DNA of 32,000 nt from positions 2,100,001-2,132,000 of the forward strand of contig NC_006576.1 in NCBI RefSeq assembly GCF_000010065.1, given 5' to 3'. The DNA comes from Synechococcus elongatus PCC 6301 (lineage in GTDB: Bacteria; Cyanobacteriota; Cyanobacteriia; Synechococcales; Synechococcaceae). Positions 17,436 through 32,000 of the stretch are shown in pieces. Position numbers and translations under genes: made by a program. Numbering within the stretch: position 1 is the first letter of the stretch; each line of letters opens with the position of its first letter. Below the pieces are notes generated by a model, which saw nothing but the letters and a program-made list of their open reading frames with translations, ran no database searches and was not told the origin of the DNA.

Positions 17436-18875
17436 ATGGCTTCAATTCGAGAACTGCACAGCCAGCTAGTTCGTAAGGAGCGCAGTGCAGTCGAAATTGC
17501 TGAAGCGGCGCTACAGCGTATCGAAACCCTCGAGCCACAGCTCAAAAGTTTTTTGCACGTCACAGCTGATCAGGCAATCGCTCAAGCCAAGGCAGTAGAT
17601 CAGCGAATCGCTGCCGGTGAAGAGATTAGCCTTCTAGCGGGCATTCCGATCGGCATTAAGGACAACCTTTGCACGCGGGGTATTCCCACTACCTGCGCCT
17701 CCAAGATTTTGCAGGGGTTTGTCCCTCCCTACGAGTCCACCGTCACCCAACGGCTTGCAGAAGCAGGAGCCGTAGCGGTTGGCAAGACAAACTTGGATGA
17801 GTTTGCCGTGGGCAGCTCGACCGAGAACTCTGCTTACCAAACCACTGCCAATCCCTGGGACTTAACCCGTGTTCCTGGCGGATCGTCCGGGGGGTCGGCG
17901 GCAGCGGTTGCAGCGGATGAATGCGTGGTTGCCCTCGGTTCAGATACGGGTGGTTCCATTCGCCAACCTGCTGCCTTTTGCGGCGTTGTTGGGCTGAAGC
18001 CAACCTATGGTCTGGTCTCTCGCTATGGCTTAGTCGCCTATGCGTCTTCGCTCGATCAGATTGGCCCCTTCTCTCGGAGCGTCGAAGATACGGCGATTTT
18101 GTTGGGGGCGATCGCCGGACATGATCCCAAAGATGCCACCAGCCTCAAAGTCGAGGTACCGGACTACACCCAGTTTCTCAAGCCCAGTTTGGCTGGCATC
18201 AAGGTCGGCGTGATTACTGAAACGGTGACAGATTCACCGGCAGGACAAGCGATGCAGGCTGCCCTAGAAGTCCTGCAGGGGCTGGGGGCAGAAATTCGCG
18301 AGATTTCCTGTCCGCGCTTCGCCTATGGTCTGCCGGCTTATTACATCATTGCGCCGTCGGAAGCATCAGCGAACTTGGCTCGCTATGACGGTGTTAAGTA
18401 CGGCTACCGCGTCGAAGAAGCAGAGACCCTGATCGACATGTATTGTCGGACGCGGGCAGAGGGTTTTGGCAGCGAGGTCAAGCGCCGGATCATGATCGGC
18501 ACCTATGCGTTGTCGGCTGGCTACTACGATGCCTATTACCTCAAGGCTCAGAAAGTTCGCACGCTGATTAAGCAAGACTTTGAAGCAGCTTTCGCAGAAG
18601 TCGATGTTTTGGTTTCACCCACAACCCCGACCACGGCTTTCAAAGCAGGCGAAAAAACTGCCGACCCGCTGAGCATGTACCTGTCAGACTTAATGACCAT
18701 TCCGGTGAATTCGGCCGGTTTGCCAGGCTTGAGCTTGCCCTGTGGCTTTGATGAGGCTGGTTTGCCCTACGGTTTGCAGATCATCGGTAATGTCCTGCGC
18801 GAAGACCAGGTGCTCCATACTGCCTACGCTTACGAGCAGGCAACGGAGTGGCATCTGCGGCAGCCGGCGCTCTAG
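17436..18875 (+). CDS. gatA: Glutamyl-tRNA(Gln) amidotransferase subunit A
   Basis: The amidase signature [13 protein letters not shown] and [12 protein letters not shown] are present. The N-terminus [11 protein letters not shown] begins at ATG 17436; the track starts at GTG 17421. Confidence 0.93.
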
Positions 18876-18879
18876 GGCA

Positions 18880-19740
18880 ATGCTGCTGCGATCGCTCCTC
18901 CTGATCCTCCTTGGCTGTGGGAGTGTCGTTCTGCTGTTTCTGGCGGCAATCTGGCTGGGACAGTCGCGGCTGATTTTCCGTCCTGCTAAGGATGAGCCTA
19001 TCCCGGAATCGCTGCTGGCCTATCAGCCCGCAGAGGTCTGGATTGCCCTGCAGCCCCAAGCAGTGCGATCGCCTCGGCTCCAAGCCTGGTGGTTTCCCAA
19101 TCAGGGGGTTACTCCTTGGACCGTTCTCTACCTGCACGGCATTCAAGGGCGCTGGGTCGACACGGAAGATCGACTCTTGCAGTTGCTCTCCTTGGGGCTA
19201 TCAGTGCTAGTTCTGCAATATCGCGGTTACGGACGCAGCTCTGGCCCTTTCCCCAACGAGCAACGGGTCTGCGCGGATGCTGAAGCGGCAGTTGCCTATC
19301 TGGCCAAGGAACACGCCATTCCCAGTGATCGCTTGTTAGTTTATGGCCACTCTTTGGGTGGTGCGATCGCGGCTGAGCTAGCTAACCGTCAGCCCAAACT
19401 AGCAGGCTTAATTCTGGAGGGATCCTTCAGCTCGATGCGGGCGATGACTCAATATCGGCAGCGGTTTGCTTGGTTCCCCAACTGGCTCTTGCACCAACGC
19501 TTTGATACCCTCGCTAAAGTGCGGCAGTCGTCGGTACCGGTGTTAATTCTGCACGGTGAAGCAGATACCGAGGTGCCAGCCCTAATGAGTGAAGCCCTGT
19601 TCTTGGCCGCTGCAGGGCCAAAGCAACTCTGTCGGATTCCCGATGGGGGGCATAACGACTTGCCGAAGCTGGCAGGCGATCGCTATCGACAGGCTTTTCA
19701 GCGTTTTCTCGATTTAGTGGCTGCGCGATCGCGAGCCTAG
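18880..19740 (+). CDS. Alpha/beta-fold hydrolase with an N-terminal membrane anchor
   Basis: The track ORF starts at 18742 inside gatA. The ATG at 18880 lies 4 nt after the gatA stop and opens with a TM helix (LLLILLGCGSVVLLFLAAIWL). The nucleophile elbow is GHSLGG, followed by LHGEADTEVP and GGHND. Confidence 0.85.
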   Translation: MLLRSLLLILLGCGSVVLLFLAAIWLGQSRLIFRPAKDEPIPESLLAYQPAEVWIALQPQAVRSPRLQAWWFPNQGVTPWTVLYLHGIQGRWVDTEDRLLQLLSLGLSVLVLQYRGYGRSSGPFPNEQRVCADAEAAVAYLAKEHAIPSDRLLVYGHSLGGAIAAELANRQPKLAGLILEGSFSSMRAMTQYRQRFAWFPNWLLHQRFDTLAKVRQSSVPVLILHGEADTEVPALMSEALFLAAAGPKQLCRIPDGGHNDLPKLAGDRYRQAFQRFLDLVAARSRA

Positions 19741-19901
19741 GTAGGCATCCCAGCAACGTTCCAGTGAATCGGGTGAGGCGTTTCCAGGCATGACTTGCAC
19801 TGCTTCCTGCTGTTCTCGTCGCTAAACCTGTGCAGGGGGGCATCCTAGGACGGGTCGTTTCAGGCTGTCTGAACGAGCCATCGCCCCTTGGGAGATTGAA
19901 G

Positions 19902-20756
19902 ATGACCCTGGCTGGCTACACCATTCGTCCCATGACGCGATCGGATTTGGATCTAGCGATCGCTTGGGCTGCTGCTGAAGGCTGGAATCCGGGCTTGGAT
20001 GATGCCGACAGCTTCTATAGCGCTGATCCCACAGGGTTCTGGATGGGCTGGCTAGATGATCAACCGATCGCTTGTCTGTCGACGGTCAAATATGGCGATC
20101 GCTTTGGCTTTGTCGGCTTTTACATCGTCGTACCCCAATACCGAGGTCAAGGCTACGGCTGGGCGATTTGGCAGGCTGGGCTGGCGAGTTTGGGGGATCG
20201 CCTGATCGGTTTGGACGGTGTGGTGGCACAACAGGAGAACTACCGGCGATCGCGCTTTGAATTGGCTTACTGTAACCAGCGCTATAGCGGCCTGAGTCGT
20301 AGGCTACAGTCCGAGCTCCCTGCGGCCATTCGTCGCTTAGAACCGGCGGATTTTCCCTCGCTCTTGGCCTACGATCGCCAGCTCTTTCCTGAAGATCGCC
20401 ACTCGTTTCTGGAAAAATGGCTGACTCAACCTCGAGCAATCGCCCTTGGCTATTTCGCATCCCAAGGACTCCAGGGCTATGGACAGATTCGTCCAAGTCA
20501 GGCGGGCTATCGGATCGGTCCCCTATTTGCCGATCAGCCTGAGATTGCTCAACAACTCTTTCTGGCTCTGCAGAGTCAAATTCCCGAGAGTCAGCCCATC
20601 TTTTGGGATATTCCCACGGTCAATACGGCCGCGATCGCGTTCGCCACAGAGCAGGGGTTCACCTCGATGTTCGACACCGCTCGGATGTATCGCGGAGCAG
20701 CCCCCGATATTTCCCTCAATCGCCTCTATGGAGTGACGAGTTTAGAGCTGGGCTAA
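19902..20756 (+). CDS. GNAT-family N-acetyltransferase with an additional C-terminal domain
   Basis: The ATG at 19902 is preceded by GGAG (19891). The acetyl-CoA motif YRGQGYGWAIW is present. The C-terminal half is a second domain resembling the two-domain YitH-type GNATs, judged by eye. Confidence 0.8.
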   Translation: MTLAGYTIRPMTRSDLDLAIAWAAAEGWNPGLDDADSFYSADPTGFWMGWLDDQPIACLSTVKYGDRFGFVGFYIVVPQYRGQGYGWAIWQAGLASLGDRLIGLDGVVAQQENYRRSRFELAYCNQRYSGLSRRLQSELPAAIRRLEPADFPSLLAYDRQLFPEDRHSFLEKWLTQPRAIALGYFASQGLQGYGQIRPSQAGYRIGPLFADQPEIAQQLFLALQSQIPESQPIFWDIPTVNTAAIAFATEQGFTSMFDTARMYRGAAPDISLNRLYGVTSLELG

Positions 20757-20795
20757 TTCATCACGCAGTGCGATCGTTGACTTTTGCGTTAAAGC

Positions 20796-20827
20796 AAAAA
20801 TCCTGCTCACACTTGAACAGGATTTTT
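20796..20827. terminator. Bidirectional intrinsic terminator shared by the GNAT gene (+) and tRNA-Glu (-)
   Basis: AAAAATCCTG (20796-20805) and CAGGATTTTT (20818-20827) form a 10-bp stem around a 12-nt loop. This gives a U-tract on both strands. A second AT-rich hairpin, TTTTGC/GCAAAA, lies immediately upstream. Confidence 0.6.
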
Positions 20828-20874
20828 GAGAAGATTAGAAGACTTGAAGTGATTCACTTAAGTCTCTGTTTTAA

Positions 20875-20947
20875 TACCCCCAAGGGGATTCGAACCCCTG
20901 TCGCCTCCGTGAAAGGGAGGTGTCCTAGGCCTCTAGACGATGGGGGC
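20875..20947 (-). tRNA. tRNA-Glu (anticodon UUC), 73 nt, no encoded CCA
   Basis: The reverse complement is GCCCCCATCGTCTAGAGGCCTAGGACACCTCCCTTTCACGGAGGCGACAGGGGTTCGAATCCCCTTGGGGGTA. It folds as a cloverleaf with anticodon loop CUUUCAC, T-loop TTCGAAT and a G1.U72 pair, as in plastid tRNA-Glu. Confidence 0.93.
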
Positions 20948-20967
20948 AAATCGCATCGCCAATTAAG

Positions 20968-20996
20968 AAATTATCGAACTTCTAGAGTGGTGTCAA
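20968..20996 (-). promoter_or_regulatory. Sigma70-type promoter for tRNA-Glu
   Basis: The minus strand reads TTGACA (20996-20991), a 17-nt spacer, then TAATTT (20973-20968). It ends 20 nt upstream of the mature tRNA 5' end. Confidence 0.5.
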
Positions 20997-21039
20997 CCCC
21001 TTCTCCAAAAGAAACTGCAGAGACCGCGATCGCGGTGCG

Positions 21040-22203
21040 TTAGCAGGGCATGGTGTAGCGATAAACCGGCATCGTGAAGTGGAAGGTGCTGCCTTGGCCC
21101 AGTTCCGAAGCAACCCAGATGCGGCCAAAGTGGGCCTGAACAATTCGCTGGCAAACCGATAGTCCAATGCCGTAGCCCTCTTGGCTGCTATCGCGGGAAA
21201 GCCGCACCAAGTTCTTGAAAATGACGCTGAGCTGGTCGCGAGGGATGCCAGAGCCCGTGTCGCTGATGCTGATCTGCACTTTCTGGCTCGTGCGATGGAG
21301 CGCTGCGATCGTGATTGTGCCCCCGGGCGGAGTGTATTTGATGGCGTTGTCTACCAGATTGACCAGAACCTGCCGCAGACGGTCAGGGTCGGCGTAGAGC
21401 GTGGGCAGGTCGCCTGGAACATCCGTGATCAACTGCTGCTGCTTACTCCGCCAGCGTTCATGCAACTGTTCCAGAACCTGCTGCAGGAGCGGCTCAAAGA
21501 CGACTTCGCGGGGATTGATCCGCAAGCTTTCGCCAGAGTGGCGAGTTGCCTCCAAAATCTCGGCAATCATGCGCTCGATTTCACGCAATTGCGATCGTGC
21601 CTGATCGAACAGACTGCACAGTCCCTGCATTTCCTTGGCTGTCGCCACAGAAAAGGATTGACTGCGGATTTGAATGGTGTCGACCGCCAAAAGAGCAGCG
21701 GTTAGCGGATTGCGGAGGTCGTGGGCGACGAGAGCAATGACCTGCTCAAGGAATTTTGTCCGCTCCGAGAGATCAGCGTATTGTTGCTGAAGCTGAAAAA
21801 AGGCATCAGCCTGCTGCAACGCGGGGGTCTCGGGTTGGCCTAGCTCCGTGAACGGAATGTTGACTTCAGGTGGCTCTCGATCGGCAAAAAAGGCCTCTTG
21901 CTGAACCAGCCACTGGGGCAACTGGTTGGCTAATTGATCGGTGAGGTCGATGCCACTCAGAACTTGGCGAGAGCCTGGACCAATTTTAACCAGGGCAGGC
22001 GTGACGACTAGGCGGTAGTACTCCACCAGTTGTGGCTGGTCCGCCACATTGATCACCTGCAAGCTGATGGGGACGGTTGCCTCTACTGCTGCCAAAATAT
22101 TTTTAACCCGCTGCACAATGTGCTGTGACAGGGGCCGGGTATCGACGAACAGTTGCAGTAGCAACGGTTGAGCCAGTGCTTGTGGTGACAGAGACTCTCC
22201 CAT
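21040..22203 (-). CDS. sasA: Circadian clock output histidine kinase SasA (KaiB-like N-terminal domain plus HisKA/HATPase)
   Basis: From the ATG at 22203 the protein reads MGESLSPQALAQPLLLQLFVDTRPLSQHIVQRVKNILAAVE, which is the S. elongatus SasA N-terminus as I recall it. The H-box is VAHDLRNP, with N, G1 and G2 boxes downstream. The length is 387 aa. Confidence 0.93.
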   Translation of the reverse strand: MGESLSPQALAQPLLLQLFVDTRPLSQHIVQRVKNILAAVEATVPISLQVINVADQPQLVEYYRLVVTPALVKIGPGSRQVLSGIDLTDQLANQLPQWLVQQEAFFADREPPEVNIPFTELGQPETPALQQADAFFQLQQQYADLSERTKFLEQVIALVAHDLRNPLTAALLAVDTIQIRSQSFSVATAKEMQGLCSLFDQARSQLREIERMIAEILEATRHSGESLRINPREVVFEPLLQQVLEQLHERWRSKQQQLITDVPGDLPTLYADPDRLRQVLVNLVDNAIKYTPPGGTITIAALHRTSQKVQISISDTGSGIPRDQLSVIFKNLVRLSRDSSQEGYGIGLSVCQRIVQAHFGRIWVASELGQGSTFHFTMPVYRYTMPC

Positions 22204-22304
22204 TAACTCGCGATCGCTGGCTGGGGGGCAAACACCCACGGGGTCGTGCGTGTTCCCAACAGTCTACCGAAGCGATCGCGAATTCGTTGGTAAGTAGGAT
22301 GGCT

Positions 22305-23300
22305 CTAGCGGAACGTACTGCTCACTGAGCTTTCTTCGTGAATCCGCCAAATTGTTTCACCCAACAGGTTAGCCACCGACAGGATCGTCAACTGAGGGAA
22401 GCGGTTTTCCTCGGGGATCGGAATCGTGTTAGTGACAATTACTTCCTCGAAGAGGCCGCTGGCCGAGAGACGCTCGATTGCCGGTGGCGAGAAGACTGCG
22501 TGCGTCGCACAGGCGTAGACCTGGCTCGCGCCTTGCTTGCGCAGGAGACGGGCACCCTCGCAGATGGTGCCAGCTGTGTCGATCATGTCGTCCACGAGCA
22601 CCGCTGTTTTACCCTGAACGTCACCAATGACGTTGAGGACTTCCGCAACGTTGTGAGCTTGTCGACGCTTATCAATGATCGCTAAAGGCGCATCATCTAA
22701 TTTCTTGGCGAAGGCACGAGCCCGAGCGACACCACCGACGTCAGGAGAAACCACTACTAGATCAGCGAGATTTTTGCTGCGCAGATAGTCGATCAGGACA
22801 GGCGACCCATAGACGTGATCGAAGGGAATGTCGAAATAGCCTTGAATCTGGGCTGAGTGCAAGTCCATCGCCAGCACCCGATTCGCTCCAGCCTGAGTGA
22901 TTAGGTTAGCAACCAACTTGGCTGTAATCGACTCACGACCTGCCGTTTTGCGATCGGCGCGGGCGTAACCGTAGTAGGGCAAGACTGCCGTGATTTGGCG
23001 GGCTGACGCACGTCGACAGGCGTCGATCATGATCAGCAATTCCATCAAGTGGTCGTTGACCGGCCAGCAGGTCGGCTGCATCAAGTAGACATCACAGCCG
23101 CGGATCGATTCTTGGATTTGAACGTACAATTCACCATCCGCAAACCGCTTGCGGATCATGGGCCCTAAATCAATCCCGAGATAGCGAGAAACTTCTTGGG
23201 AGAGGGCGGAATTGGACGAACCAGAAAATAGCCGTAGGCGATGATTGTCCGGGAGTGAGGGCAGTGCAGACGCGAAGGGCAGGGTGGCAGAACGGATCAC
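22305..23300 (-). CDS. prs: Ribose-phosphate pyrophosphokinase
   Basis: GTG start; 331 aa. Motifs are YARADRK, the PRPP-binding loop VLVDDMIDTAGT and VVSPDVGG. Confidence 0.95.
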   Translation of the reverse strand: MIRSATLPFASALPSLPDNHRLRLFSGSSNSALSQEVSRYLGIDLGPMIRKRFADGELYVQIQESIRGCDVYLMQPTCWPVNDHLMELLIMIDACRRASARQITAVLPYYGYARADRKTAGRESITAKLVANLITQAGANRVLAMDLHSAQIQGYFDIPFDHVYGSPVLIDYLRSKNLADLVVVSPDVGGVARARAFAKKLDDAPLAIIDKRRQAHNVAEVLNVIGDVQGKTAVLVDDMIDTAGTICEGARLLRKQGASQVYACATHAVFSPPAIERLSASGLFEEVIVTNTIPIPEENRFPQLTILSVANLLGETIWRIHEESSVSSTFR

Positions 23301-23528
23301 AGCAGACCCCGGAGCATAACCAACGAAATCTTATCATCCCTGCCTAGGCGTCGACCGTGGCAACAGGACGCTAAAAGGCATGCCTACTGGGCCGTTCGCC
23401 TGTTTTTGATCGCGAGCGATCGCCTTCAACAAGTTTTCGTTTCCGATTGGCTGGAGCGATCGCCCGGTGCATCGTCTTGGTAACAGTTCCCGTTAGGCTG
23501 AAGACGCTCCTTTGCTGCTTCTTTCGTT

Positions 23529-24071
23529 ATGCGTCTGCTGATCAGCAGTACTTCTTCCGGCGCTGGTAAATCCGCGATCGCCCAAGCACTACAGGCCTAT
23601 CAAGCTTGGCGACGGCAACCGGTTTGGTCGCTTCAAGACTGGCTGGCGTCAGATCAGTCCTTGGCGGAACGCTGGCAGACTTTGCAGCAGAGCGAAGCCT
23701 GTTTTCTGGAAGCGCCCGGTTGTTTGGGAACACTGGTTGCACCGGAATTGACCGTGGCAGATCTAGCACAGGCTTGGCGATTACCGGTGCTGTTGGTGGC
23801 TTCAGCCCAAATGGACTGGCCCGGACAGGCGATCGCGATGGTGGCCTTGGCTCAACAACGGCAGCTACCGATTTTGGGCGTGATTCTCAATCAAGTTACG
23901 ACTGCAGCTCCCGTTGCACAGGAATCTTTCCAGTTACTGACTGGCATTCCTGTGCTGGGAACTTTTCTAGCGGGAGCAGCCCAAGCGGCGATCGCAGATC
24001 AGGCGGCGATCGTCCGTAATTGGGATCTCGAACGCCTACCCGGATTCCTGCCAGCGATCGCGAGAGTCTAG
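23529..24071 (+). CDS. Short P-loop protein resembling a truncated dethiobiotin synthase (BioD-like)
   Basis: 180 aa with the P-loop-like STSSGAGKS. The block FLEAPGCLGTLVAPELTVADLAQAWRLPVLLVASAQ...ILGVILNQV is collinear by eye with E. coli BioD VLVEGAGGWFTPL...LPVILVV...LAGWVANDV. The middle substrate-binding segment appears to be absent. Confidence 0.5.
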   Translation: MRLLISSTSSGAGKSAIAQALQAYQAWRRQPVWSLQDWLASDQSLAERWQTLQQSEACFLEAPGCLGTLVAPELTVADLAQAWRLPVLLVASAQMDWPGQAIAMVALAQQRQLPILGVILNQVTTAAPVAQESFQLLTGIPVLGTFLAGAAQAAIADQAAIVRNWDLERLPGFLPAIARV

Positions 24072-24097
24072 TAGCTGAAGTCGTTTTTCAGTTGGAC

Positions 24098-25006
24098 TCA
24101 GACCTTGCCCAGTGCTTGTAGCTTGTCCCAAGCCAACTTGGCAGCCCCAACTCGACCGGCTTCGTTGCCGAGTGCCGCGATCGCAATCTGCAGATCTTCA
24201 CGAGAGGTCGGGAGGACGCGACGATGCAGCTCCTCCGTCAGTGCCGGTAAGAAGAAAGCTGCACTGCCGCTGATGCCGCCGCCCAGAATAATCACTTCGG
24301 GCGTCAGGACATAGACCAGACTGGCAAGACCGGCAGCGAGCGTTCGGCCATAGTCCTGCCAAGCCGCGATCGCTTCAGGACCCCCTTGGGAAGCGCGATC
24401 GCCGAGGTCTTTGGGATCGCAACCAAAGCGCCGCTGAACGGCTCCGATCGAGGCATATTGCTCTAACGATCCTTGGTTGCCACTATTGCAATGCGGCCCA
24501 GCCGGGTCCAGTGTGATCAGCCCGAGTTCTGCTGCTGTTCCCGTGCGACCCACAAACAGCTCGCCATTGAGTACGATCGCCCCGCCCACGCCGGTCCCGA
24601 GAGTCAGCAAAATGGCATCGCGATAGCCCCGACCGCCACCCAGCCAGACTTCACCCAAGCCAGCGCAGTTGGCATCATTGGCCAAAATGACCGGCCGTTG
24701 CAGATCGGCTTCCAGCCAGTCAGCCAGGGGGACCTCAGTCCAGCCGTCTAGATTGATGGCAACCCGCGCTACCCGACCGGCTGCATCCGCAGGCCCCGGT
24801 GTACCAATGCCGATCGCCAGTGCTTCAGCTTGGGGATCGAGCTGACGGATCGCCTCTACGAGCGCAGCCCGAACATTGCTTGGCGTGCTGGGGGTTGGAG
24901 TTGGGACGGTCAATTCCTGCTGACACTGTCCCTCAATCGGGTAACGCCCCAATTTCATGGCAGTTCCGCCCAAATCGACGCCGATCACGGTCGCGGGGTA
25001 TGCCAT
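24098..25006 (-). CDS. ROK-family sugar kinase (glucokinase-like)
   Basis: The start is taken at ATG 25006 (MAYPATVIGVDLGGTAMK, the ATP-binding DxGGT motif). ILANDANCAGLGE and GTGVGGAIV are present. No N-terminal HTH, so this is a kinase rather than a repressor. Confidence 0.85.
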   Translation of the reverse strand: MAYPATVIGVDLGGTAMKLGRYPIEGQCQQELTVPTPTPSTPSNVRAALVEAIRQLDPQAEALAIGIGTPGPADAAGRVARVAINLDGWTEVPLADWLEADLQRPVILANDANCAGLGEVWLGGGRGYRDAILLTLGTGVGGAIVLNGELFVGRTGTAAELGLITLDPAGPHCNSGNQGSLEQYASIGAVQRRFGCDPKDLGDRASQGGPEAIAAWQDYGRTLAAGLASLVYVLTPEVIILGGGISGSAAFFLPALTEELHRRVLPTSREDLQIAIAALGNEAGRVGAAKLAWDKLQALGKV

Positions 25007-25130
25007 AACGATTGCCCTAGCCCAAGTTGCAAAAGAGTTTCGCAATCCTAGCAAGCAGCGATCGCCTCAGTGAAACAGACATGCCACGATCGCCAATAGT
25101 CCCCCTGTTTTGAAGCGAGGAGCGAACACC

Positions 25131-26114
25131 GTGCGCGTCGTCTTTTTTGGAACCCCCCAATTCGCGGTTCCAACTTTGCAGCAGTTGCTTGATGCGCCGG
25201 ATGTTGAGGTGATGGCGGTGGTCAGCCAACCCGATCGCCGCCGAGGGCGGGGTAATCAGGTCAGTGCTTCGCCGGTCAAAGCCCTCGCGATCGCCTATGA
25301 TTTGCCAGTCTGGCAACCGGAACGCCTGCGCCGCGATCCAGAAGTCTTGAGTCAGTTACAGCAAACCCAAGCTGATGCGTTTGTCGTTGTCGCTTACGGC
25401 CAGTTACTGCCAGCGGAGGTGCTGGCGATGCCACGACTGGGCTGCATCAACGTCCATGGTTCGCTGCTGCCGGCCTATCGTGGTGCCGCCCCGATCCAGT
25501 GGAGTTTGATCAACGGCGATCGCGAAACGGGGATCGTGACGATGCAGATGGATGTAGGCATGGATACGGGGCCGATGCTGTTGCGCTGGACGACCCCGAT
25601 CGCCTTGGACGATAACAGTCAGACCTTGGGCGATCGCTTGGCGACAGCGGGCGCTGAACTGCTCTTACAAACGCTGCGGCAACTGGATCAGGGGCACCTA
25701 ACTGCGATTTCTCAAAACGAGGCTGAAGCGACCTATGCTCGGCTCCTGCAAAAGGAAGACTTTCAGCTGAGCTGGGATCAGTCCGCCTTGGAGCTGCATA
25801 ACCGGATTCGTGGGCTGTATCCCGGAGCGAGTCTACCTGTCCAAGGCGATCGCCTCAAAGTTTTGGCCAGTCTGCCCTTGGGACTAGGTCTGCTCCTGTC
25901 GGCGGCCTATGCAGATTGGCAAGATTGGCAGCCTGATCCAGCAGCTCAGCCAGGGACCGTATTGGCGATCGCCAAATCCTTGGGGCCGATCGTGGCGACT
26001 CGCGAGGGAGCATTACTACTACTACAAGTTCAACCGGCAGGCCGCAAACCACTGAGTGGCTGGGATTGGGCCAACGGCCTGCGCTTGCAAGAAGGGCTGT
26101 CTTTGCTGGAGTAA
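25131..26114 (+). CDS. fmt: Methionyl-tRNA formyltransferase
   Basis: The GTG at 25131 is preceded by GAGGAG (25117-25122). VVFFGTPQFAVPTL, NVHGSLLPAYRGAAPIQW and the C-terminal Fmt domain are present. The track starts at TTG 25110. Confidence 0.93.
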   Translation: MRVVFFGTPQFAVPTLQQLLDAPDVEVMAVVSQPDRRRGRGNQVSASPVKALAIAYDLPVWQPERLRRDPEVLSQLQQTQADAFVVVAYGQLLPAEVLAMPRLGCINVHGSLLPAYRGAAPIQWSLINGDRETGIVTMQMDVGMDTGPMLLRWTTPIALDDNSQTLGDRLATAGAELLLQTLRQLDQGHLTAISQNEAEATYARLLQKEDFQLSWDQSALELHNRIRGLYPGASLPVQGDRLKVLASLPLGLGLLLSAAYADWQDWQPDPAAQPGTVLAIAKSLGPIVATREGALLLLQVQPAGRKPLSGWDWANGLRLQEGLSLLE

Positions 26115-27890
26115 CTAAACGCGATCGCTCAGACGTTCGCCGGTTTGCACTTTCCAGAGGTTGGCATAGAGGCCATCCAAGGCAAGAAGTTCGTCATGGT
26201 GTCCGGCTTCGACCAAGCGACCCTGATCCATCACATAGATGCAGTCCGCATGACGAATCGTCGAGAGGCGGTGGGCGATCGCCAAGGTGGTCCGATCGCG
26301 GGTGATTTGTTCGAGCGATCGCTGAATGGCGGCTTCGGTCTCGTTATCGACTGCCGAGGTTGCTTCATCGAGGATCAGGATTGGCGGATCCTTGAGAATG
26401 GCTCGCGCGATCGCCAAACGCTGCCGCTGTCCACCCGACAGTTTCTGGCCTCGTTCGCCCACAACTGTGTCGTAACCCTGGGGTAAATCCATGATGAATT
26501 CGTGGGCTTCAGCGAGCTTGGCAGCTTGCTCAATTTCAGTCTGAGTCGCGTCAAAACTACCGTAGGCAATGTTCTCAGCAACACTGCCATGGAAGAGAAA
26601 AACATCCAGGCTAACGAAGCCGATCGCCTGCCGCAAATCCTTCAGTTTTAAGTCACGCAAATCAATCCCATCGAGTAGGATGCGACCGGTTTGAGGTTCA
26701 TAGAAACGCAGCAGCAGTTTGACTAAGGTACTTTTGCCAGAACCAGTAGCCCCGACGATCGCAATCGTTTGACCAGCGGGGATGTTCAGATTGAGATCGA
26801 TAACACTGGGTTCGCGATCACGGTAAGCAAAGGTGATGCCTTCAAACTGGACAGCACCTTGCACTTGGCCGATCGGCAAAGATTGGCGACCGCTGGGAAT
26901 TTGCACCGGGATCGCCAGCAAATCCATCACCCGCTGGGTCGAAGCCATCGCCCGTTGGTAGTCATCCAGTACTCGCCCCAAGCTGGTCAAGGGCCAGAGA
27001 AGACGTTGGGTAATGAACACCAAAAAGCTATAGGTGCCGACATCGAGCCGTCCGTTAATGGTTTCCATTCCACCGACATAAAGAATGGCGATGAAAGCAA
27101 ACAGAATCGCGAAACGAATCAATGGAACAAAAGCGGAACTGAGCGCGATCGCCCGACGATTCGCTTGGCGATAGGCATCACTATCCTCAGCGACCCGCCC
27201 TTTTTCAAATGCCTCAGCCGTGAAACTTTTAATCGTGGCAATGCCGCCCAAATTGTTCGCCAGTCGTGCACTAATCAGACCGGCTTGTTCGCGAACGCGG
27301 GCATAGCGCGGGGCTAAACGCCGTTGGAAGCGCAGCGATCCCCAGAGAATGACAGGAATCGGCAGAATCGCCAGCCCTGCCACGGTTGGAGAGAGATAAG
27401 CCATCGCCCCACCGACTGCCAGAACGGTGGTCGTGACCTGCAAAATCTCGTTTGCGCCGTGGTCGAGGAAGCGTTCGAGCTGGTTGATGTCATCGTTGAG
27501 AACACTGAGTAGCTGACCAGTACTCCGCTCCTCAAAAAAGCTCAGCTCCAGTTCTTGCAAATGGCCGTAGGCATCCAAACGCAACTCATGTTGCAGCGTT
27601 TGCGCGAGGGTGCGCCATTGCCAAGCGTAGAGATACTCGAACAGTGATTCGAGGCTCCAAATCACAAAGGAGAACAGCACCAACAGCCCTAACTGCTGTT
27701 CAACGGGGACGACGCCCCACTTGGCCAGCCAAGAATCCTGCCGCTGGACAACCACATCCACCGCCATGCCAATCAGGACGGGTGGGGCAAGGTCAAAGAT
27801 TTTGTTGAGGATCGAACAAGCGATCGCACTCAGCACCTGCCGTTGATGGGGGGCACTGTAGCGATACAACCGCACAAGGGGATGGGGCAT
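26115..27890 (-). CDS. ABC exporter, fused transmembrane and ATPase domains (MsbA/multidrug-type half transporter)
   Basis: 591 aa with six N-terminal TM helices, Walker [10 protein letters not shown], signature LSGGQRQR and Walker [10 protein letters not shown]. Confidence 0.9.
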
Positions 27891-27944
27891 GGTTCTCGCA
27901 ATCAGCCAGCTCTTTCCAGCATGGCAGGCGATCGCAGTTCCATA

Positions 27945-28313
27945 TTAGAGAGGGTGGTAGCGAACGGAGTAGCTCGGCCCAAGTTCGAGCCTCAAGGCTT
28001 GCAAAGCAGCCTGGGCTGCGACTTCAAACTGAGCTGACTCTTCAGCCGTCCAAGGGCTTGGCCCTGCCGGATCATTCCAGTCCAAAGCAGTGTCATGCCA
28101 AAGAGACAGTTGGTCTAATTGCTGTCGCAAGCTCTGGGATAGTGGCAGTTGATCTTCGATCGCGCCAACATCAAAGCGATCGCGACTCGCCGCATCATCC
28201 GCCCAAAGAATCCCACCACCCCATTCAAAGCTAAGGCGAAGTGCGAGGGGTTTAGGTGAAGAATTATTGGCTCCAAGCTGAGGTTCAGTGCAGTTAATTG
28301 GGTATGGATCCAT
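27945..28313 (-). CDS. Hypothetical acidic, Trp-rich protein (122 aa) directly upstream of the ABC exporter
   Basis: The ORF is in the same orientation as the exporter and 54 nt upstream of it. The ATG is at 28313; the track uses TTG 28322. No family recognised. Confidence 0.5.
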   Translation of the reverse strand: MDPYPINCTEPQLGANNSSPKPLALRLSFEWGGGILWADDAASRDRFDVGAIEDQLPLSQSLRQQLDQLSLWHDTALDWNDPAGPSPWTAEESAQFEVAAQAALQALRLELGPSYSVRYHPL

Positions 28314-28510
28314 CAAGGTCAACCTGTTCTAAAGCCAGTGAATGCAATTTTTGGAACGATGATGCCGCTCGCAACAGTGTTCAGCGATTACGTTCCCGAA
28401 GAAAGATCTTCTAGGGCGATCAGGCTGGGAGGCCTAGGACAGTCTGCCTTGATTGCTTACTAGTGAACGTGCTAGCACCCGAGTGCTCAAAGCCGTAATG
28501 ACTTTGAGTT

Positions 28511-28552
28511 GTAACGACGGCTACATTTTGACCCTGGGGTTACTACTACCAT
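28511..28552 (+). promoter_or_regulatory. NtcA-activated (class II type) promoter of the cyn operon
   Basis: GTAACGACGGCTAC (28511-28524) is a perfect GTA-N8-TAC box. Exactly 22 nt downstream lies TACCAT (28547-28552), which fits the TAN3T -10 pattern. Nitrogen (NtcA) control of cynS in this organism is established knowledge. Confidence 0.6.
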
Positions 28553-28576
28553 TCGCCCTTAACTGAGGAAAGTTTG

Positions 28577-28945
28577 ATGGTCCCCCCAACACTTCTTGAG
28601 GAGCAATCTAAGCTCCTCCATTCTGCTGCGTGTCGCTGTCAGGATTGCTATCGTCTGACGACCGATCACGATCGCTTTTTGGAAGATATGCCGCAAGACC
28701 CTGAGATCTTGATGGCAGATTTTCAAAAGATGGGTTTATTCAAACCTGAATCGATTGCGATCGCCGATCGTCTGACGACTTCAGAGTTGCGCCAAGCCTT
28801 GTTCTTTAAAAATGCTTCCCAAGGGGATCCTGAACAGGGAAGCAATGCTGAGAGCTTTGGCTGCAGAAGCAGGTGGTTTAGATCAGGCATTTGCTGCTGC
28901 TTTTGGACCGCAAGCGGGTCGTTTTTTCAGCAACATTCAAGCTAG
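28577..28945 (+). CDS. Upstream ORF of the cyn operon (122 aa as read). Only the first about 78 codons look coding. It may be a detached N-terminal part of cynA.
   Basis: GAGGA (28565-28569) lies 7 nt before ATG 28577. This is the first ORF after the predicted promoter. It contains CRCQDCY...DH and overlaps cynA by 134 nt in another frame. See findings. Confidence 0.35.
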   Translation: MVPPTLLEEQSKLLHSAACRCQDCYRLTTDHDRFLEDMPQDPEILMADFQKMGLFKPESIAIADRLTTSELRQALFFKNASQGDPEQGSNAESFGCRSRWFRSGICCCFWTASGSFFQQHSS

Positions 28946-30167
28946 TGGCGGGGTCAGTCGTCGGGTTTTCCTGCGCAACTTGGTCGTTGGTGCAGCTCTC
29001 GTGACGCTGACCAACTGTGCCCAACAGGCTCAACAACCCGATAGCCCAACCACGACTGGCAGTGGCAATTTAGAAAAAACGGATCTGAAGGTTGGCTTTA
29101 TCCCGATTACCTGCGCCACTCCGATCATCATGTCAGATCCCTTGGGCTTCTATCAGAAATATGGCTTGAAAGTCCAAGTTGTGAAGATGCCGAGCTGGGG
29201 GGCAGTTCGAGATTCTGCGATCGCAGGCGAATTGGATGCCTATCACATGCTGGCACCGATGCCGATCGCGATGACCTTGGGTCTTGGCTCAGCTCCCTTC
29301 AGTGTCAAGTTAGCCAGTATTGAAAATATTAACGGTCAGGCGATTACGGTTGCCAAACGTCACCTTGGCAAAGTCAAAGAAGCGAAAGACTTCAAAGGCT
29401 TTGTGATTGGGGTCCCCTTCCCCTTCTCAATGCATAACCTGCTGTTGCGCTACTATCTCGCTGCTGGTGGTTTGAATCCCGATACCGATGTCCAAATTCG
29501 GCCAGTTCCCCCGCCAGATAGTATTGCTCAGCTCGTCGCAGGTGATATCGATGCGATGCTGATGCCCGATCCCTTTAATCAGCGGGCAGTGTATGAAGAT
29601 GCTGGCTTTATTCATCTGTTAACTAAAGAAATTTGGAATGGTCATCCTTGCTGTGCATTTGCAGCAGGTGAGCCTTGGATTCAAGAAAATCCCAATACGT
29701 TCCGAGCGCTTAACAAAGCAATTATTGAAGCAACTGGTTATGCCAGTAAGGCCGAAAATCGTGCTGAGATTGCCAAGGCTATTTCTAGCCGTCAGTACTT
29801 AAATCAACCACCCGAAGTCGTGGAAGCTGTGCTGACCGGTAAGTTCCCCAATGGTCAAGGTCAAGAACTGGATGTTCCCGATCGCATTGACTTCAATCCC
29901 TACCCATGGCAGAGCTTTGCCAACTGGATTCAATCGCAGCTAGTGCGTTGGGATCTGGGTAAAGCTGCCGGTGTGATCCAGCCCGATCAGTACGACAAGA
30001 ACGGTCAGGCAATTTACCTGACGACTGAAGCACAAACCCTCGAGAAGGAAGTGGGCCTGCAGCCGCCGACTGAAATCTATCGGGAAGAAAAGCTCGCTTA
30101 CGACACCTTTAACCCGCAGGATCCAGTCGCTTACCTCGCATCTCAAAAGCAGAAATACGGGAGATAA
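28812..30167 (+). CDS. cynA: Cyanate ABC transporter substrate-binding lipoprotein (NrtA/CmpA family)
   Basis: The twin-arginine signal and lipobox are SRRVFLRNLVVGAALVTLTNC. The NrtA-like core is KVGFIPITCATPIIM...SWGAVRDS. It is followed by cynB, cynD and cynS. The start is uncertain: ATG 28812 has no SD, and ATG 28845 is preceded by AGGGAAG. Confidence 0.88.
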   Translation: MLPKGILNREAMLRALAAEAGGLDQAFAAAFGPQAGRFFSNIQASGGVSRRVFLRNLVVGAALVTLTNCAQQAQQPDSPTTTGSGNLEKTDLKVGFIPITCATPIIMSDPLGFYQKYGLKVQVVKMPSWGAVRDSAIAGELDAYHMLAPMPIAMTLGLGSAPFSVKLASIENINGQAITVAKRHLGKVKEAKDFKGFVIGVPFPFSMHNLLLRYYLAAGGLNPDTDVQIRPVPPPDSIAQLVAGDIDAMLMPDPFNQRAVYEDAGFIHLLTKEIWNGHPCCAFAAGEPWIQENPNTFRALNKAIIEATGYASKAENRAEIAKAISSRQYLNQPPEVVEAVLTGKFPNGQGQELDVPDRIDFNPYPWQSFANWIQSQLVRWDLGKAAGVIQPDQYDKNGQAIYLTTEAQTLEKEVGLQPPTEIYREEKLAYDTFNPQDPVAYLASQKQKYGR

Positions 30168-30176
30168 ACACAACTT

Positions 30177-30968
30177 ATGGTGAGAACTCCTGTACCGCTT
30201 TACCTACGTTGGGCGGTCTCCATCCTCAGCGTGCTTGCGTTCCTAGCCATTTGGCAAATTGCGGCAGCTTCAGGATTTTTAGGCAAAACTTTTCCTGGCT
30301 CCCTGCGCACTTTGCAGGATTTGTTTGGATGGCTTTCAGATCCCTTCTTTGATAACGGCCCCAATGACTTAGGGATTGGCTGGAACTTACTGATTAGTTT
30401 GCGTCGCGTTGCGATCGGCTACCTGCTGGCAACAGTTGTTGCAATTCCTTTGGGGATTGCAATCGGTATGTCGGCGCTAGCTTCCAGTATTTTTTCGCCC
30501 TTTGTGCAACTCCTGAAGCCAGTTTCACCTTTGGCCTGGTTGCCGATTGGTCTCTTCTTATTCCGAGATTCGGAATTGACGGGTGTTTTTGTCATCCTGA
30601 TTTCGAGTCTGTGGCCAACGTTGATCAACACAGCGTTTGGGGTGGCGAATGTCAATCCTGACTTTTTGAAGGTTTCGCAATCTTTGGGAGCTAGTCGTTG
30701 GCGCACGATTCTGAAGGTGATTCTGCCCGCAGCATTGCCCAGCATCATCGCGGGAATGCGGATCAGCATGGGCATTGCTTGGCTGGTCATTGTGGCAGCA
30801 GAGATGCTGTTGGGAACAGGAATTGGCTATTTCATTTGGAATGAGTGGAATAACCTATCACTTCCTAATATTTTCTCGGCCATCATCATCATTGGGATTG
30901 TTGGCATTCTTCTCGACCAAGGCTTCCGTTTTCTTGAGAACCAGTTTTCTTACGCAGGCAACCGATAA
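30177..30968 (+). CDS. cynB: Cyanate ABC transporter permease (NrtB-like)
   Basis: 263 aa, polytopic, with an EAA-type loop region (SQSLGASRWRTILKVILPAALPSI). Confidence 0.9.
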   Translation: MVRTPVPLYLRWAVSILSVLAFLAIWQIAAASGFLGKTFPGSLRTLQDLFGWLSDPFFDNGPNDLGIGWNLLISLRRVAIGYLLATVVAIPLGIAIGMSALASSIFSPFVQLLKPVSPLAWLPIGLFLFRDSELTGVFVILISSLWPTLINTAFGVANVNPDFLKVSQSLGASRWRTILKVILPAALPSIIAGMRISMGIAWLVIVAAEMLLGTGIGYFIWNEWNNLSLPNIFSAIIIIGIVGILLDQGFRFLENQFSYAGNR

Positions 30969-30971
30969 CCC

Positions 30972-31841
30972 ATGATTTCTGAAGCTGTGCCAGCCAAGGA
31001 GGAGACAGGGCAGGCTCAATTGCTGATTGAGCAAGTTGGCAAAGTTTTTACTGTCAATTCACCTTCTCTCCTCGATCGCCTTCGACAGCGATCGCCCAAA
31101 CGCTACGTTGCATTAGAAGATGTCAACCTCACGATCGCGTCGAACACATTTGTCTCGATTATTGGCCCTTCGGGTTGTGGTAAATCAACCCTTCTCAACT
31201 TGATTGCTGGCCTTGATTTACCAACGTCTGGCCAGATTCTGCTGGATGGTCAACGCATTCGATCGCCGGGGCCCGATCGTGGCATCGTCTTCCAGAACTA
31301 TGCCCTGATGCCCTGGATGACCGCGCTTGAGAATGTCATCTTTGCAGTTGAAACGGCGCGCCCAAACCTGAGCAAATCCCAAGCTCGCGAAGTGGCACGA
31401 GAGCATCTAGAGCTGGTGGGTTTAACCAAAGCTGCCGATCGCTATCCGGGCCAAATTTCAGGGGGGATGAAACAGCGCGTAGCGATCGCCCGTGCCCTCT
31501 CCATCCGTCCTAAGCTCCTGCTGATGGATGAACCCTTTGGTGCCTTGGATGCCCTCACCCGTGGCTACCTCCAAGAAGAAGTGCTGCGGATTTGGGAAGC
31601 CAACAAACTGAGTGTGGTGCTCATCACTCACAGTATTGATGAAGCACTGCTGCTTTCCGATCGCATTGTGGTGATGTCTCGTGGGCCACGAGCCACTATT
31701 CGAGAAGTGATTGATTTACCAGCCGTTCGCCCTCGGCAACGGTCTGTGATCGAAGAAGATGAGCGCTTCGTCAAAATCAAATTGCGCCTTGAAGAACATT
31801 TGTTCAACGAGACGCGTGCAGTTGAAGAAGCCAGTGTTTAG
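30972..31841 (+). CDS. cynD: Cyanate ABC transporter ATP-binding protein (NrtD-like)
   Basis: Walker [10 protein letters not shown], signature ISGGMKQR and Walker B LLLMDEPF. Confidence 0.9.
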
Positions 31842-31851
31842 GAGAATTCCA

Positions 31852-32000
31852 ATGACCTCAGCGATTACTGAACAACTTCTGAAAGCGAAAAAAGCAAAGG
31901 GAATTACCTTTACTGAGCTTGAGCAATTACTTGGACGGGATGAAGTCTGGATTGCGAGTGTGTTCTACCGTCAATCTACGGCTTCGCCTGAAGAGGCAGA
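31852..32000 (+). CDS. cynS: Cyanase (cyanate hydratase), N-terminal 49 codons; the gene continues past the window
   Basis: The ATG at 31852 is preceded by [47 protein letters not shown] matches the cyanase N-terminal helix-turn-helix-like domain. Confidence 0.9.

Follow-up and report, generated by a model that had tools for sequence, protein, structure and literature searches.

In the stretch of the Synechococcus elongatus PCC 6301 chromosome analysed here (32,000 nt; the window), the coding sequence at the 5' end of cynA appears to pass from one reading frame into another, and the question is whether this switch is a biological feature or a flaw of the record. Coordinates are those of the window, and features lie on the plus strand unless stated otherwise. 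An ORF of 122 aa starts at ATG 28577, 7 nt downstream of a Shine-Dalgarno-like GAGGA (28565–28569), and ends at 28945. The cynA frame, +1 relative to it, is closed by a TGA at 28773–28775, opens at ATG 28812 (451 aa) and overlaps the first ORF by 134 nt. These features of the original prediction were all recovered on re-reading, as were the run of five A residues (A5) at 28808–28812 and the 529-aa length of a fusion product. The prediction had placed the switch at the A5 run, by +1 re-pairing of tRNA-Lys or loss of one A, and had listed as alternatives a small ORF overlapping cynA, a strain-specific frameshift and an error in the homopolymer.

Comparison with other CynA proteins moved the switch away from the A5 run. 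Homology in frame 0 was found to persist for nine codons past the run (NASQGDPEQ, to 28837), and homology in the cynA frame begins only at GAA 28839 (EAMLRALAAEAGG); the MLPKGILNR encoded by the cynA frame matched nothing in the homologue comparison. These limits, together with an extra G at 28837–28839, place the real switch point about 27 nt downstream of the proposed one. The true junction is ...FFKNASQGDPEQ-EAMLRALAAEAGG... as against the ...FFK-MLPKG... proposed earlier, and the junction peptide LRQALFFKMLPKGILNRE is consequently non-existent. An intact S. elongatus contig (L007) differed from the window over 28500–28960 (461 nt) solely in carrying GG in place of GGG at 28837–28839; the TTTAAAAATG run and the A5 run were the same in both, so that the suggested comparison of A runs revealed no difference. 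Nucleotide alignment showed a single one-base gap in all six orthologues, opposite GAACAGGGAAGC of the window. Deleting one G yielded exactly the 529-aa CynA of PCC 7942 (ABB58137.1) and UTEX 2973 (AJD57387.1; P0009).

Exact-sequence look-up found the 529-aa CynA on 147 contigs (172 index blocks), and the 122-aa, 440-aa and 395-aa (BAD80176.1) products only on the 2,696,255-bp PCC 6301 chromosome. When the N-terminal region served as query, the matches included the identical 122-aa 'unknown protein' of PCC 6301 and metagenomic fragments in which the first-ORF sequence runs in a single frame into the part of CynA preceding the twin-arginine (RR) motif (...ELRxxLFF[RK]xASQGNPxxExLLRxLAxEAGGLDQAFAAAFGP...RR). 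Judged by these comparisons, one 529-codon gene underlies both the ORF 28577–28945 and the cynA frame (ATG 28812), each being one half of it, in keeping with the single 529-aa CynA that had been suspected, and the frame switch is no biological feature. Its cause is the GGG run at 28837–28839, which is one G longer than in any other S. elongatus assembly. Codons 1–87 of cynA (frame 0; 28577–28837) make up the first part of an N-terminal extension; they are identical to residues 1–87 of the 529-aa CynA of PCC 7942 as well as UTEX 2973 and are conserved in frame across six orthologous loci (L001–L006). The second part, codons 88–126, is read in the cynA frame (28839–28955). The remainder of the 122-aa ORF (28838–28945) is a spurious out-of-frame tail (GSNAESFGCRSRWF...) carried by no homologue, the 122-aa product itself being found on one contig only.

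Two overlapping frames that together make one protein are also found in prfB (release factor 2), which uses a +1 frameshift, and programmed +1 ribosomal frameshifting or transcriptional slippage, at either the A5 run or the G run, could in principle join the two halves of cynA; both frames are open through the overlap and homopolymer runs are present. Unlike prfB, however, cynA has neither a conserved shift site nor, at the switch point, an in-frame stop, a stimulatory Shine-Dalgarno sequence or a stimulatory structure, and its orthologues are unshifted. The other S. elongatus assemblies are likewise single-frame. At the A5 run, a +1 slip, including the proposed re-pairing of tRNA-Lys, was ruled out by the junction seen in the homologue alignment and by the unchanged run in the intact contig. 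At the G run, CAG-GGA-AGC does not figure among the known +1 shift-prone sites and is accompanied by neither a 0-frame stop nor a rare-codon pause, and a search for a stimulatory structure in the 103 nt downstream showed folding no better than that of shuffled sequences (z = -1.15). A programmed shift there thus had no signals, and no conservation in the six orthologous loci or the other S. elongatus assemblies. Joining of the frames by frameshifting or slippage is therefore highly improbable.

The first ORF (78–122 aa) could alternatively be a small gene in its own right, or an upstream ORF with a regulatory role and translational coupling to cynA, since it has a good Shine-Dalgarno sequence and ATG of its own and overlaps cynA. 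Homologues of a free-standing 78-aa gene would be expected in that case; the opposite was found. The extension was in frame with the binding domain in six of six loci, which answers the question of collinearity raised by the original prediction, and it was collinear with CynA everywhere. A profile of the extension run against 1.84 billion representative proteins gave 56 matches. Every match examined was an N-terminus or fragment of CynA, with the binding domain present in the full-length sequences (537 and 544 aa); a free-standing gene ending in a conserved stop was not among them. On the evidence of this exhaustive search and of the six loci, a free-standing small ORF is rejected, and the chance of a separate or coupled gene is close to nil. 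For recoding or coupling of any kind, the chance of explaining the frame switch is at most very slight.

The extra G in cynA is, with a probability of roughly 0.88, a base-calling or assembly error in the 2004 PCC 6301 record. A strain-specific frameshift or a homopolymer error had been named among the earlier alternatives; a cause of this type holds, but in the G run and not in the A run. The surplus G would artificially divide one gene, leaving a 122-aa 'unknown protein' ORF and a cynA truncated at its 5' end. It is exclusive to AP008231 (PCC 6301, 2004), and the gene is intact in independent assemblies including PCC 7942 and UTEX 2973. For the published PCC 6301 sequence, Adomako et al. (2022; PMC9239245) report >1,000 apparent SNPs and indels, which in many cases break essential genes; resequencing of PCC 6301 abolished the apparent changes in essential genes, the authors attributed most reported differences to sequencing errors, and genuine differences among all legacy strains number only 120. 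Comparison of the window with a legacy-type contig (L008) revealed 13 differences in 13.4 kb, comprising 11 substitutions and 2 one-base insertions. This density is about 1 per kb, whereas the 120 genuine differences in ~2.7 Mb given in that paper predict roughly 0.6 per 13.4 kb; on these figures, any given difference in the window would be real with a probability of only roughly 5%. The density fits the error load documented for the published PCC 6301 record, and the cynA site resembles the errors described there in being a record-unique single-base indel that breaks an ORF intact in other legacy strains, amid the same high density of differences.

The other reading of the extra G is a genuine one-base insertion in the sequenced PCC 6301 clone, so that the culture concerned would truly have a split cynA. 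Any CynA produced would then start at Met90 (ATG 28845, after AGGGAAG) or at ATG 28812, without the N-terminal domain. The record does hold the extra G, RefSeq has a 440-aa product from ATG 28845 on the PCC 6301 chromosome, and cynA is dispensable in the laboratory, so that a frameshift could drift in. The argument of PMC9239245 from essential genes, in which no frameshifts are tolerated, is for its part not directly applicable, as cynA is non-essential. Nonetheless, the 122-aa product is encoded by no other assembly in the protein collection, the roughly 5% chance of being real applies to this difference as to each of the others, and UTEX 2973, which descends from UTEX 625 (= PCC 6301) according to PMC9239245, has an intact gene. 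A real insertion is thus unlikely. The accessible portions of PMC9239245 and its supplements make no mention of the cynA site, and the accessible supplements of PMC5389031 have no entry for it.

With the surplus G taken as an error, the PCC 6301 entries BAD80175.1 (122 aa), BAD80176.1 (395 aa) and WP_234701771.1 (440 aa) would be artefacts of it. CynA stands in the databases at three lengths, of which only the 529-aa form includes the extension: the 440-aa entries AAB58736.1 and WP_234701771.1, from older and RefSeq annotation, start at Met90 and omit it, and the 395-aa BAD80176.1 starts inside the signal peptide (MVVGAALVTL...). As the apparent recoding or gene overlap amounts to what is most probably a one-base error in a record already known as unreliable, the window is unsuited to frameshift mining. 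The intact cynA is already annotated in PCC 7942, and the extension is already visible in the existing 529-aa annotations. What novelty is left resides in the uncharacterised extension, a domain that is conserved and under selection, has a putative metal site and precedes an internal Tat signal; it offers a modest, testable lead on the handling of Tat lipoproteins with large cytoplasmic pre-domains.

The real gene begins at ATG 28577, downstream of a candidate NtcA-type promoter and the GAGGA Shine-Dalgarno sequence, and codes for the 529-aa CynA precursor. Direct reading of the sequence gave a candidate NtcA-type box, GTA-N8-TAC, at 28511–28524. The same motif was found 60–190 nt upstream of the extended cynA ORF in L001–L004, L006 and L007, that is, in every locus having upstream sequence (L001, 2692–2705; L002, 5852–5865; L003, 5758–5771; L004, 5746–5759; L006, 5745–5758; L007, 1435–1448). 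In L001 and L002 the start codon of cynA is probably GTG or TTG, since the open frame contains no ATG ahead of the Cys/His motif described below. Downstream, the mature substrate-binding domain with the stop codon (29016–30167) is followed by cynB (permease; 30177–30968) and cynD (ATPase; 30972–31841). A Cyanate_lyase gene follows cynD in L008, and the order cynA-cynB-cynD-cynS is the same in L001–L006. The CynA of PCC 7942 (Synpcc7942_2107, ABB58137.1, 529 aa) has the same cynA-cynB-cynD(-cynS) context and, once the extra G is removed, identical amino acids, the extra G in the PCC 6301 record being the only difference. CynA is described in PMC4390861 and PMC4973221 as part of a cyanate/nitrite ABC transporter encoded by cynABDS and induced by nitrogen starvation.

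An ORF on the minus strand (27945–28322), divergent from cynA, is flanked by cynA on one side and by a 591-aa ABC exporter gene (26115–27890, minus strand) on the other. It encodes 125 aa from a TTG and is called at 122 aa in L007 and L008; no Pfam match was found for it. The 13 differences from L008 (window 18576–32000) are located at 18712, 19271, 19696, 21354, 22315, 23443, 24381, 24749, 24940, 26608, 27327, 28076 and 28837. Among them, the extra C at 23443 is the second one-base insertion and is intergenic, 27327 is a synonymous change in the 591-aa ABC transporter gene, and 28076 turns Asp83 of the minus-strand ORF into Asn.

The 529-aa precursor consists of the extension (residues 1–126), SRRVFLR (127–133), a hydrophobic stretch ending in LTNC (134–147) and the binding domain (148–529). 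The binding domain matched NMT1_2 (Pfam PF13379; E = 2e-79, 267 bits against a gathering cut-off of 24.7) and was 97% identical to P0008 and 71–83% identical to the other cyanobacterial homologues listed. The signal (28956–29018) combines the twin-arginine motif SRRVFLR (28956–28976), which conforms to the textbook Tat pattern S/T-R-R-x-F-L-K and is followed by the hydrophobic NLVVGAALVTL, with the lipobox-like LTNC, whose Cys147 is encoded at 29016–29018. All 120 closest homologues matched [STGAN]RRxF[LIMVC], the commonest forms being [ST]RRxF[LM][KRQ], and this motif followed by Cys was conserved in about 97% of the N-termini scanned. Against the lipobox consensus [LVI][ASTVI][GAS]C, the Cys was present in about 97%, and position -1 was occupied by Asn in the LTNC of S. 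elongatus and in about one half of the homologues; by this consensus, Asn at position -1 is non-canonical. The few homologues that lack the Cys might possibly retain the segment as an uncleaved anchor. Homologous fragments are named 'twin-arginine translocation signal domain-containing protein' by NCBI.

The RR pair of CynA occupies residues 128–129, outside the extreme N-terminal position (within about 35 residues) expected of such a signal. NrtA and CmpA, cyanobacterial lipoproteins that bind nitrate/nitrite and bicarbonate, belong like CynA to the NMT1_2 fold family, serve ABC transporters of the same type and also bear a lipobox Cys after a twin-arginine motif, but their RR pair falls within roughly the first 10 residues; Maeda and Omata are said to have identified NrtA as a lipoprotein in 1997. 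In the CynA clade, in contrast to that position, RR lies at about residues 128–140, behind a conserved extension of about 125 aa. The motif was present in 120 of the 120 closest mature-domain homologues (71–97% identical, from many cyanobacterial orders) and was located at residue 91 or later in 119 of them (mode 138–140), so that the extension is the norm for this clade. The original prediction suggested, tentatively, that some members of the family carry N-terminal extensions before RR, which proved correct for nearly all of the CynA clade; it also placed a segment of about 128 aa with Cys and His residues before the twin-arginine/lipobox signal, and this was likewise substantiated. Hydrogenase small subunits and actinobacterial Rieske proteins also have Tat signals with long n-regions or an internal position, where RR is not extreme N-terminal, and the segment ahead of such internal signals is expected to stay cytoplasmic. 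CynA differs from these in that its signal is preceded by a domain of about 125 aa, conserved and probably folded, that bears a Cys/His knuckle and is confined to one binding-protein family.

In six freshwater picocyanobacterial loci with the order cynA-cynB-cynD-cynS, the extension and the binding domain were present in one ORF, which in L003 encodes 537 aa from its ATG. Differences in the extension between loci were concentrated at third codon positions (for example, 0.10/0.09/0.41), and the extension has about double the evolutionary rate of the mature domain. This pattern of substitution indicates that the extension is translated and under purifying selection. The first part of it contains, alongside an MPxDP motif, a Cys/His knuckle, C19-x-C21-x2-C24-x6-H31 (28631–28669), in which C21 and C24 are invariant and H31 is nearly invariant. 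The form C-x2-C-x3-H-x4-H was observed in 71 of the N-termini scanned (homologues P0085–P0203), covering most lineages, and the form C-x-C-x2-C-x6-H in 12, from S. elongatus and picocyanobacteria. The loss of one His and gain of one Cys, with four ligands kept, suggests a conserved four-ligand metal site, and the knuckle may be regarded as a putative structural zinc site. The most conserved stretch of the extension is AGG[LI][DE]xAFxAAFG, located 18–30 residues before RR, and MPxDP is also conserved. The invariant AGGLDQAFAAAFGPQAGRFF motif of S. elongatus (28869–28928) lies within codons 88–126.

Two AlphaFold models predicted the extension to be all-helical over residues about 30–123, with a block-mean pLDDT of about 66–89 for residues 31–130; the knuckle was modelled with low confidence. 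No family was assigned to the extension by Pfam and NCBIfam on the S. elongatus protein, and Pfam on 16 members at E <= 5 returned nothing but noise for it. A sequence-profile search of the PDB found no relative, and Foldseek with the two AlphaFold models found no match in the PDB. A zinc-binding anti-sigma motif (ZAS, H-x3-C-x2-C) and known zinc fingers were considered for the knuckle and rejected, as the order of the motif differs and there was no Pfam or PDB relative. The literature searched held nothing relevant on the extension, on cynA together with twin-arginine, or on Tat N-terminal extensions in cyanobacteria.

In Tat and lipoprotein biology, the RR motif docks on TatC, the N-terminal side stays cytoplasmic and the folded domain is translocated. 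Applied to CynA, the cytoplasmic extension (residues 1–126) would comprise the four-ligand Cys/His knuckle, the helical domain and the invariant AGGLDQAFAAAFGP motif ahead of the Tat/lipobox signal, and the mature part would be a cyanate/nitrite-binding domain of the NrtA/CmpA type. Cys147 would be lipidated and signal peptidase II would cut before it, leaving mature CynA on the periplasmic face; the extension would stay cytoplasmic during Tat export and then be removed together with the signal peptide at Cys147, as a 146-residue N-in fragment. The export route, the cleavage at Cys147 and the binding of metal are all putative and are deduced from motifs. We tentatively propose, at slightly less than even odds, that the segment of about 125 aa is a real and previously undescribed cytoplasmic module that precedes the twin-arginine signal in practically every cyanobacterial CynA, maybe with a dedicated function. 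Its parts would be the four-ligand Cys/His knuckle, for which zinc is the probable metal, an orphan helical domain and the invariant AGGL(D/E)xAFAAAFGP motif. Such a module may, for example, gate or chaperone the Tat export of CynA. Alternatively, it may be a membrane-anchored cytoplasmic fragment that outlasts cleavage by signal peptidase II and regulates CynBD, and not a passive long n-region. A part in targeting before export, or simple degradation after cleavage, may also be its fate.

About 20 CynA entries of 491–510 aa (for example, P0085, P0096, P0100, P0121, P0132, P0147 and P0149) have their first residue at, or very shortly ahead of, the nearly invariant MPxDP Met and are without the Cys/His knuckle. 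They are probably truncations by the gene caller or at contig ends, and an alternative start at the conserved MPxDP Met is possible. Odd metagenomic or database cynA entries were also encountered (P0031, 268 aa; P0069, 657 aa): in one metagenomic cynA, DDE_Tnp_4 transposase sequence interrupts the gene after about 150 residues, and in another entry a Ser/Thr-kinase N-terminus is joined to a partial CynA extension and the binding domain. The latter is probably a chimeric assembly or gene call, since the fragments P0070 and P0073 show a normal N-terminus.
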